Part shown: one piece after another, positions 80 through 2,424 of the stretch
How positions within the stretch are numbered: the stretch's first letter is position 1
Layout of the letters: each line of letters starts with the position of its first letter
Source of the DNA: Curvularia clavata
Lineage: Eukaryota
Length of the DNA stretch: 64,000 nucleotides
Reading direction: 5' to 3'
Assembly: GCA_023920165.1 (NCBI GenBank)
Contig: CP089279.1
Location: 2,666,001-2,730,000 of the forward strand
Notes under the pieces: generated by a model
Seen by the model: only the letters and a program-made list of their open reading frames with translations
Databases searched by the model: none
What the model was told of the DNA's origin: nothing
Position numbers and translations under genes: made by a program

Positions 80-589
80 GATGGTATCTTGACTCCCTGA
101 CAAGAAATTACGATGGATATGCTGGCTTCTTGGGGGGACTGTGGCAGGTGTGCTTGTATTTGACGACCCTCTCATATACAAATCGTTCACCTGGGCGCAC
201 GTGCTCGTTTGCACCTCACTGGCGAACGTGCAAAAGGCATCAAAGCCGTTTGGCGTATTGTGGTTCAAAGCCGTCCGTTTGCGGCCTAGCGCAACGCCCA
301 GCCAGGTGTCCCAAGCTTTTTACCTAGACATCACCGCCCAGCGACCGCTCTTCTCCACCGTCAACACCATCACGAACCTCTCCCGCCGCCGAACCTCTCC
401 AGCAGCAGTCGACTCGTGTGCCTGTGAGCCCGCAGCTCAGTTGCTAATTTCTTCTCCTCCTAGTTCTTTCATATAATACTCGCTTCTCCTCTACACTTGC
501 GACACGGCTTTGTTAGCAGCCTTGCTTGCGACACACGCAACCACCAACTCCTTATTATAGCCACACGCATTTAGGACATATAATCCATC

Positions 590-2424
590 ATGTCTCACGA
601 GGAGGATCTCATTGACTACTCCGATGAGGAGATCCAGACCGAGGCGCCCGCCAACGGCGGCGCGTCAAAGGGCGGTCTTGCCGCGGACGCTGCTGGCGAC
701 AAGAAGGGCAGCTACGTCGGCATCCACTCTACCGGTTTCCGCGACTTTTTGCTCAAGGACGAGCTTGTGCGAGCGATTACGGACTGTGGCTTCGAACATC
801 CTTCCGAGGGTTAGTCTAATTATTTCCCCTCAGCCTTCTCAACCTACAAGCGTCCGTCCATCAACGAAACGAGCCATGTCTGTAAAAAAAAGAAAGCGGC
901 CATGGTCTGTCTATACACGAGAGAGTGGCGAGGGACCCAGTGCCTTCCGCTACGTACCAACCTCGACGCACATTGCAAATGTCGTTGCACCGATACATCC
1001 ATCAAGAAACCTAGCGGTGCCTGACGGGCCCGCTCAAATGGTCCTAAGGACTGGTTTCAGCGGAGGAGCGCATGCTGTGGATGCGTAAGAGGAGGCGCTG
1101 ATGGGAGACGGGGAGGATAGACAGACTGGCACGCACGCTAGATGGAGGATCTCGGCTGCGCAAGATGGACGGACGCTTCGATTCCCACGCTTCGTTTCGA
1201 CCGCTTAAGACATATTCTGACATACTTTGTGCCCTACAGTCCAGCAAGTTACCATTCCCCAGGCCATTCTCGGAAACGATGTCCTCTGCCAGGCCAAGTC
1301 CGGTCTCGGAAAGACTGCTGTCTTCGTTCTTGCCACACTCCAACAGATGGAGGAGAAGCCCGAGCCCGGTGTTGCGACCATCCTCGTCATGTGCCACACT
1401 CGTGAGCTGGCGTACCAGATCCGTAACGAATACAACCGATTCGCCAAGTTCCTTCCCGACGTCAAGGTTGGCGTCTTCTACGGAGGAACGCCTGTGCAGA
1501 AGGACATTGAGCTCCTCAGCAACAAGGATACTCACCCTCACGTCATTGTAGGAACACCTGGCCGTATCAACGCTCTGGTTCGCGACAAGCACCTCCGTCT
1601 CGCCAACCTGAAGCACTTTGTCCTCGACGAGTGCGACAAGATGCTTGACCAGCCCGGTGCGTATCAAACTTGAAGTTATCACAACACCCGCTGACATGCT
1701 GCAGATATGCGCAACGATGTCCAGTCCATCTTCCGTGCCACTCCTCAGCACAAGCAGGTCATGATGTTTTCAGCTACCCTTAACAAGGACGTTCGCGTCA
1801 TTTGCAAGAAGTTCATGCAGAACCCACTTGAGATCTACGTCGACGACGAGAAGAAGCTGACGCTGCACGGTCTGCAGCAATACTACATCAAGCTGGACGA
1901 GAAGGAGAAGAACCGCAAGCTTAACGATCTGCTTGATAACCTCGAGTTCAACCAGGTCATTATCTTTGTGCGCTCGACGCTGCGCTGCTCGGAGCTCGAC
2001 AAGCTCCTCCGCGAGTGCAACTTCCCCAGCACTGCTGTCCACTCTGGTATCAGCCAAGAAGAGCGGTATGTTTGGAGTAACCCATAGCCAAGAGGCTCAA
2101 TACTAACAACAGCACAGTATCAAGCGCTACAAGGAGTTCAAGGAGTTCCAAACACGTATCTGTGTCTCAACCGACATTTTCGGACGTGGTATCGATGTTG
2201 AGCGCATCAACGTAGCCATCAACTACGACATGCCCGACGCAGCCGACGCCTACCTCCACCGTGTCGGTCGTGCCGGTCGTTTCGGAACAAAGGGTCTCAG
2301 TATCTCGTTTGTCAGCAGCCCTGAAGACGAGACTGTCCTCAAGTCCATCGAGGAGCGCTTCCAGGTCTCGCTCCCCGAGTTCCCAGAGGACGGCGTCAAC
2401 TCTGCCTCGTACATGGACAACTAA
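590..2424 (+). CDS. SUB2: DECD-box ATP-dependent RNA helicase Sub2/UAP56
   Basis: Exons 590-809, 1240-1656, 1705-2065 and 2118-2424, joined by GT-AG introns with CTGAC/CTAAC branch points. Motifs: [26 protein letters not shown] (Q motif across intron 1), [32 protein letters not shown]. Confidence 0.98.
810..1239 (+). other. Long, highly structured intron 1 of SUB2 (candidate cis-regulatory RNA)
   Basis: 430 nt, versus about 45-105 nt for the other introns modelled here. Perfect 15-bp complement 848-862/1164-1178 plus further nested helices (see findings). Confidence 0.75.

Follow-up and report, generated by a model that had tools for sequence, protein, structure and literature searches.

In Saccharomyces cerevisiae, zipper stems of the RPS17B type are described, in the accessible part of PMC12350175, as the pairing of a strand after the 5′ splice site with a strand before the branch point over at least 6 bp, with a linker of 42–85 nt. 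In RPL7B the zipper is required as a splicing enhancer, and the feedback proposed for this gene removes the zipper; what is conserved there, according to the available part of PMC12311795, is an alternative structure that binds Rpl7. YRA1 encodes an autoregulated TREX subunit that is toxic in excess; it carries a long intron with a non-canonical branch site conserved across yeasts, and its off state is the unspliced RNA (available parts of PMC11585973, PMC2864733, PMC2911113 and PMC4818039). As far as these texts describe regulation of the YRA1 type, the unspliced RNA is exported and decayed through Edc3, and the gene product inhibits splicing. The plant DEAD motif of DRH1/RH46, an intronic duplex that has been suggested to sense helicase activity and to shift splicing to non-coding forms, is a local 20-bp hairpin hiding an alternative 3′ splice site in a DDX5-like helicase of land plants (accessible part of bioRxiv 10.64898/2026.01.23.701338). 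Human DDX39A/B promote the splicing of their own intron 6 in a level-dependent manner; this positive loop is tied to polypyrimidine tracts, and an RNA stem is not mentioned in the available part of PMC11317157.

Sub2/UAP56 is essential in splicing and mRNA export and inhibitory in excess, and we found no account of how its level is set in fungi. A literature search, whose reach excluded most subscription papers, returned no description of an element in SUB2 intron 1. The words "SUB2", "UAP56" and "helicase" are absent from the main text of two fungal RNA-motif screens (PMC8216456 and PMC5640933) and from three short supplements of the latter, and the supplement of PMC8216456 may list lower-ranked candidates. 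Screens for compact motifs could miss the stem described below (P1), since its interior is long and variable.

The window (the whole stretch of DNA that was analysed, 64,000 nt of Curvularia clavata) carries a SUB2/UAP56 gene. The homologue search returned proteins named SUB2/UAP56 with identity up to 100%, exons 1 and 2 translate into the N-terminal helicase domain, and in a quick tree the protein groups among references of an order that we take to be Pleosporales. The following parts of the gene were used:

590..809, + strand: SUB2/UAP56 coding exon 1 (73 codons and one further base), whose end lies in the Q-motif region (translation with exon 2, homologues)
810..1239, + strand: SUB2 intron 1, 430 nt, phase 1, with spliced and retained forms in RNA contigs
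1657..1704, + strand: SUB2 intron 2, 48 nt, internal control, spliced form only in RNA runs X1, X5 and X12
2066..2117, + strand: SUB2 intron 3, 52 nt, internal control, spliced form only in X1, X5 and X12

The ends of intron 1 (GT..AG) were confirmed by RNA contigs with a joint skipping 430 nt in three of the four runs used (X1, X5 and X9). As the first-pass annotation had remarked, this intron is much longer than its neighbours, the comparison being made here within SUB2. Upstream of it, contigs of X5 and X12 run unspliced through window 424–463, where words resembling a donor, a branch site and an acceptor could mark a 5′ UTR intron. No more than 24 nt past the donor (window 816–833), a word of branch-site type followed by AG resembles a 3′ splice site at the very start of intron 1; the AG is present in many orthologues, without a common branch word, and is used by no joint in the RNA contigs.

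The longest perfect inverted repeat of intron 1 is P1, which had been read from the sequence as a perfect 15-bp stem and proved to be one:

848..862, + strand: 5′ arm of P1, with a conserved core at 852–862 (orthologues, chance test)
1164..1178, + strand: 3′ arm of P1, with a conserved core at 1164–1174 (orthologues, chance test)

A length of 15 bp was reached neither by any of 2000 dinucleotide shuffles of the intron nor by any of 290 tiles of 430 nt taken elsewhere in the window; the longest was 13 in both sets. The predicted mean pairing probability of P1 in the whole-intron ensemble was 0.97.

Relatives were collected by scanning metagenome contigs with an exon 1–donor pattern, which gave at least 118 stretches; 84 of the 118 listed yielded the intron in full, at the same position. 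In a tree of 26 loci, the window and 51 named proteins (quick method, SH-aLRT only), a branch with support 100 comprised 64 rows, among them the window and 19 metagenome loci, and these 20 complete introns form the sample used below. We take the references of this clade to be Dothideo-, Lecanoro-, Leotio- and Sordariomycetes, and the clade itself to be Leotiomyceta; a group of four loci without a reference protein in the tree (L009, L012, L041 and L068) presumably represents Eurotiomycetes. Two loci, L017 and L056, were left out because they duplicate, or nearly duplicate, L012 and L021, and close kin remain among the 20 rows (L024/L069 and L033/L040/L048).

The orthologue comparison bore P1 out: a stem of 10–19 bp enclosing 199–531 nt was kept in all 20 introns, its arms being anchored by a script on the core word. 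In the 11-pair core, 218 of 220 cells pair (207 with the consensus, 7 as G-U and 4 changed on both sides), although the intron averages 31% column identity and its interior resists alignment between classes. In 16 of these introns, at least 99 of 100 shuffles fell short of the longest perfect inverted repeat, and the four below this cut-off are Sordariomycete rows whose stems contain G-U pairs. Among introns of at least 150 nt at the same position in other eukaryotes, 4 of 34 passed the same test, three of them through simple repeats. Truncated loci agreed in part, with the 5′ arm found within one mismatch in 14 of the 20 examined; L052 has a variant 12-bp stem, and L082 has the arm at two mismatches and a different donor. 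A non-fungal locus (L065) shows weak matches to both arms.

In an unedited MAFFT alignment, with three rows (L006, L008 and L034) out of register, the P1 and donor–branch pairs together had 90% paired cells, against 86.7% in column shuffles, none of 500 of which came as high, and 31–44% when slid. Two-sided changes occurred at 7 of the 15 P1 pairs, a count inflated by relatedness, since related rows are not independent. Because few two-sided changes fall within the core, the covariation comes mostly from the flanks, where pairs differ both ways between lineages. On this comparative evidence, P1 is a conserved long-range stem of almost unchanged core sequence around a variable interior. The core of the earlier observation is real, and it is stronger than a reader of the sequence could have known.

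The P1 arms (window 848–862) are composed of four-base units. Additional units in L008 and L021 permit slipped registers, and the stem of L034 is lengthened by another tetranucleotide repeat. The same intron of three non-fungal loci (L011, L023 and L015) contains 17–19 bp stems of purine/pyrimidine simple repeats, which in L011 and L023 lie about 50 nt from the donor.

The splice signals around P1 and the spacer between donor and stem are as follows:

810..815, + strand: donor GTTAGT, which includes the in-frame TAG at 812–814 and can pair with the branch word
816..847, + strand: linker joining the donor to P1, rich in C and U, with partial sequence conservation (alignments, composition)
1216..1221, + strand: non-consensus branch site TCTGAC, with the branch A at 1220 assigned from the consensus

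All 20 introns have a GTYAGT donor, and a T precedes CTRAY (TCTRAY) in every one. Control introns were 30 other SUB2 introns, taken by a greedy script from 15 of the 20 loci, two of them with doubtful ends; a GTYAG start was found in 1 of the 30, and the preceding T in 2 of the 26 that have a branch-like word. The duplex of the branch site with the U2 of this genome was weaker for intron 1 (−2.7 kcal/mol) than for introns 2 and 3 (−4.0 and −4.9 kcal/mol). At the same time, the duplex of the donor with U1 reached −6.3, against −6.9 and about −5.5 for the other two (the window for intron 3 being one base off), so the intron 1 donor is no weaker against U1 than the other donors of SUB2. Intron length is likewise maintained, at 423–697 nt in the 20 orthologues against 46–90 nt in the 30 controls. 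Retention of the intron leads, as had been noticed from the sequence, to an immediate stop in the Q motif (TAG, 812–814). When retained, each of the 20 orthologous introns stops the reading frame at its codon 2 or 4, and the five donors that have lost the TAG are followed by a TAA two codons later.

P1 resembles the yeast zippers in pairing a post-donor strand with a pre-branch strand and in exceeding 6 bp in every intron; the yeast definition includes formation in vivo, seen by chemical probing, and P1 has predicted pairing and comparative support. The two linkers of the window, 38 and 41 nt, add up to 79 nt. In all 20 introns they measure at least 38 and at least 39 nt, and, counting the unbroken helix only, their total is 78 nt in L063 and 92–201 nt in the remaining 18. 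Thus, unlike in the yeast zippers, 18 of 20 linkers exceed 85 nt; moreover, the 11-bp core of P1 is nearly fixed across several fungal classes, whereas yeast zipper stems share 20–30% sequence identity in the set of budding yeasts compared and are gained and lost from one orthologue to the next (available part of PMC12350175). It is this contrast that makes the stem odd: long-range zippers have been described as fast-changing, and P1 is nearly fixed around 300–500 nt that cannot be aligned.

The simplest account would be a constitutive zipper, with P1 shortening a long intron, retention reflecting slow splicing, and the sequence frozen because an essential gene purges single substitutions in so short a stem. 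The 79-nt linker of the window fits the yeast definition, changes within the core are mostly G-U wobbles, and a search for folds competing for the arms found none. Nevertheless, we consider this account unlikely: it leaves unexplained why none of the 20 introns has shrunk toward the 50-nt norm and why the weak branch site and the early stop are both kept, and it is further opposed by the 18 overlong linkers and by the low sequence conservation of the yeast stems.

RNA contigs were drawn from 4 of 24 listed runs (X1, X5, X9 and X12), belonging to four studies. Contigs keeping the intron cover 780–1268 (X1 and X5), 848–1268 (X9), and 844–1063 and 1194–1435 (X12). Their depth against that of the spliced junction was 179.8/221, 161.2/304.2 and 16.7/66.3 in three studies, that is, 45%, 35% and 20% of the local contig depth, which is a poor measure of level, cannot rank parts of the gene and comes from contigs of no known strand. 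For X12, the one run on record as RNA, no spliced intron 1 joint was listed, and the contig at 1194–1435 crosses the 3′ splice site unspliced. The exon overlap of the intron-keeping contigs is 30 and 29 letters in X1 and X5, below a 31-letter rule, and reaches 31 only in record 8 of X12, at the 3′ end; X9 is a mix of several organisms. Genomic DNA is an unlikely source of these contigs, since introns 2 and 3 appear only in spliced form in X1, X5 and X12.

The reading that we prefer, and to which we give close to an even chance, is that P1 is a zipper-type long-range stem and that the weakly spliced long intron around it serves negative feedback on the dose of Sub2/TREX, the feedback being proposed on the model of YRA1, RPL7B and the plant DEAD motif. 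On the sequence, P1 folds an interior of 300–530 nt away, so that about 80–130 nt remain from donor to branch point. Splicing should then depend on P1, given a non-consensus branch site with weak pairing to U2; such reliance is what RPL7B would lead one to expect. A large share of the transcripts would stay unspliced, as the contigs indicate. Plentiful Sub2, together with Yra1/THO, might load on the interior and open P1, or might commit the RNA to export before the spliceosome assembles. The retained RNA, which on its sequence stops at codon 75 in the Q motif, yields no helicase and might subsequently be detained or decayed.

Negative feedback is supported by the presence of P1 in all 20 introns, the kept length, the early stop and the intron-keeping contigs. 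It is also supported by the harm done by Sub2 in excess, the overexpression of which inhibits growth and mRNA export in yeast (available part of PMC4818039). The opposite sign of the human DDX39A/B loop and a donor no weaker against U1 than the others of SUB2 argue against it, as does the point that Sub2 is not known to bind specific sequences. Like YRA1, SUB2 intron 1 is long and has a weak branch site, an early stop and an unspliced RNA; unlike YRA1, it belongs to a different gene. With RPL7B it shares a long intron and a non-consensus branch site (20 of 20 orthologues, 2 of 26 control introns). In contrast to RPL7B, it is the zipper itself that is conserved in SUB2, with no conserved, mutually exclusive structure, and an RPL7B-like switch architecture is not indicated, since neither arm has a conserved competing partner in cis. 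As 423–697 nt are kept where other SUB2 introns have 46–90 nt, something beyond the zipper would maintain the long interior, and arms so nearly fixed in sequence suggest recognition of the stem, or of an opened arm, by a protein. SUB2 intron 1 thus resembles a zipper in an autoregulated intron and stands outside the DEAD motif and the Rfam families. By these analogies, its stem probably lets the cell limit the amount of its own helicase, through a small, mutable cis element, two arms of 11 nt, which several classes of filamentous fungi possess.

The retention might also be governed with the other sign or by another regulator: Sub2 could open the stem, or a pairing of donor and branch word, and thereby promote the splicing of its own RNA, or Yra1, an SR-like protein or stress could set the level of retention. 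Human DDX39A/B, which are orthologous helicases with retention of one intron of their own, give this alternative its model, in that intron 6 depends on the cognate ATPase (available part of PMC11317157), and A-complex formation involves Sub2 at the branch site (available part of PMC11585973). In 16 of the 20 orthologues, full pairing of donor and branch word is possible, with a predicted probability of about 0.3 in the window and above 0.6 in 9 of the 20 model folds; such a pairing is also predicted in L013, a locus outside the clade. The remaining four orthologues have a C-A mismatch, and both words are in any case constrained as splice signals. Linker–linker pairing in the 20 orthologues gave a mean z of −0.37 relative to shuffles, with 5 of 20 below −1, so a donor–branch helix can be called possible at most. 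A single rod formed by the two linkers was not supported, as they showed no pairing beyond shuffles; there is a correlation between their lengths (rho 0.67), but each also follows the length of the whole intron, in rows that share ancestry. Positive feedback, moreover, would be no guard against toxic excess, and we regard a loop of the other sign, or another regulator, as unlikely. We presume that intron 6 of human DDX39A/B lies at a different position from SUB2 intron 1.

Helicase sensing by SUB2 intron 1 is plausible by analogy with the plant duplex. P1, like the DEAD motif, is a conserved intronic duplex in an RNA helicase gene. It differs in being long-range (arms 199–531 nt apart), in belonging to a UAP56-family gene and in the RNA outcome, the contigs containing retained forms and no alternative site. 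A more ambitious form of the idea, which we put forward tentatively and consider rather doubtful, would make P1 an ancient, sequence-locked sensor by which Sub2/UAP56 or a TREX particle measures its own activity in most filamentous ascomycetes. Opening of the 11-bp core would at once remove the splicing zipper and expose the arms to a specific factor. If true, this sensor would parallel, in fungi and in another helicase family, the DEAD sensor of plants. Outside the Pezizomycotina rows, the 553-nt AT-rich SUB2 intron of L013 (1450–2002, − strand) folds into a long rod (z −6.5) in which the donor is paired with the branch word over 6 bp, without the P1 sequence. The arrangement would be older than the P1 motif, since a rod of different sequence occupies the same intron in this locus.

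Other identities for the intron were examined. It is single-copy, with one match in the genome, in a search that can miss common words. The 11-nt P1 arm has 16 exact genome matches, compared with 18 for a control word, and a facing exact arm pair occurs at one place among the 16, in SUB2. A MITE or foldback element was rejected on this single match, this single arm-pair site and the fixed orthologous position. Rfam gave no match in intron 1 at E up to 10 and nothing at gathering score in the 20 loci, and an intronic snoRNA or other Rfam family was set aside for want of a covariance-model match and of a conserved interior. A hosted small RNA (snoRNA-like, or a stable intronic RNA), with P1 as its terminal stem, or a foldback remnant would accord with the abundance of intron sequence in the RNA contigs and with the closing of a 300-nt domain by P1. 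We consider either very improbable, given that the contigs run from the intron into the exons, that no conserved C/D boxes were seen by eye in the alignment inside the P1 stem, and that the Rfam result, the non-conserved interior and the single copy with its one facing arm pair all speak against them. The search of viral contigs gave 0 matches.

Alternative partners and uses of the arms were likewise rejected or not supported. Only 1 of 10 duplexes between the arms and snRNAs (U1, U2, U6) beat most shuffles: the 5′ arm with one U2 copy had 9 of 300 shuffles as good, and the second U2 copy failed. As a decoy donor, the 5′ arm gives a U1 duplex of +0.3 kcal/mol and no joint is found there. The ATG in the 3′ arm is not a convincing restart, as its frame to the acceptor varies and it is missing in 2 of 20 orthologues; the AG at the inner end of that arm, as an alternative acceptor, is present in 12 of 20 and has no joint, in contigs that drop rare forms. 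No conserved second partner of either arm was found in the pre-mRNA among the 20 introns, the best alternatives differing in place and all being weaker than P1. A 26-nt match to window 827–852 (L121:1501–1526, G000:C5; 23/26, 3 mismatches), near the end of an unrelated gene, was attributed to chance.

The first-pass annotation had nested further helices (P3, P4, P5 and an apical junction) within P1. All its arms, the hairpins at 1013–1034 and 1041–1051, the branch word at 1217–1221 and the stop at 812–814 are correctly placed. The competing elements of the interior are:

873–883 and 899–914, + strand: two near-duplicate strands competing for 1117–1130 (P3), with pairing probabilities of 0.96 and 0.02
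925..953, + strand: local hairpin competing with P4/P5, conserved in the nearest relatives; the subregion folds best this way in the window, L096 and L114
938–959 with 1078–1100, + strand: P4/P5 rod, lineage-restricted and weakly supported (duplex against shuffles)
1006..1058, + strand: apical junction, predicted in the window sequence only, with a probability of about 0.98

The overall stability of intron 1 is ordinary, with z −0.66 and 24 of 100 shuffles folding equally well. In the 19 clade orthologues whole-intron z ranged from −4.5 to +1.5 (20 shuffles each), and whole-intron stability was dropped as evidence, its signal not being uniform over the orthologues. P3 as drawn is disfavoured in the whole-intron ensemble, because the near-duplicate strand at 873–883 pairs with 1121–1130 instead; it does form when 895–1135 is folded alone. 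A strain variant at 905, seen in run X9, has no compensating change. P4 and P5 are likely in the whole intron (0.8–0.9), but the hairpin at 925–953 is best when intron positions 113–299 are folded alone. In L005 this hairpin lies 2 kcal/mol behind the long rod, and it is absent in L063. The P4/P5 duplex was matched by 0 of 300 shuffles in L005, by 13 in the window and, marginally, by 20 in L096; it was unsupported in L114 and L063 (143 and 211 of 300). Strand 943–953 has accordingly two mutually exclusive partners, each recurring in some of the nearest relatives, and its alternative pairing might conceivably represent a switch, or else an intermediate of folding. The apical junction stands as a prediction for the window and is unmatched in relatives, as judged by eye in the alignment. 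A second helix with two-sided changes at 10 of 18 pairs was seen in 11 Lecanoro-, Leotio- and putative Eurotiomycete rows, which were picked by eye for having it in common.

Conservation of the nested arrangement as a whole is not supported, since the interior is unalignable across classes and the inner helices are lineage-specific; judged from folds and alignments, the inner helices of the first-pass annotation are mostly not general across the clade. What survives of its conserved, structured and retention-prone intron is P1, in 20 of 20 introns, and retention where introns 2 and 3 are not retained; the conserved interior does not.

Beyond the clade, long introns at this position recur in a Pezizomycete group (L026, 633 nt; L074, 509 nt), with stems of different sequence that reach 14 bp in L026, and the SUB2 intron of L016 at this position is ordinary (79 nt). 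In the genome of the window, the P1 arms are absent, at up to 3 mismatches, from the 635-nt intron of a YRA1/ALYREF-like gene, which has no sequence in common with SUB2 intron 1. This gene, named from its sequence (PF13865 match), carries that long intron (L122:531–1165; G000:C1, near 5056114–5056748) among introns of about 50 nt, which matches the report for yeast YRA1.
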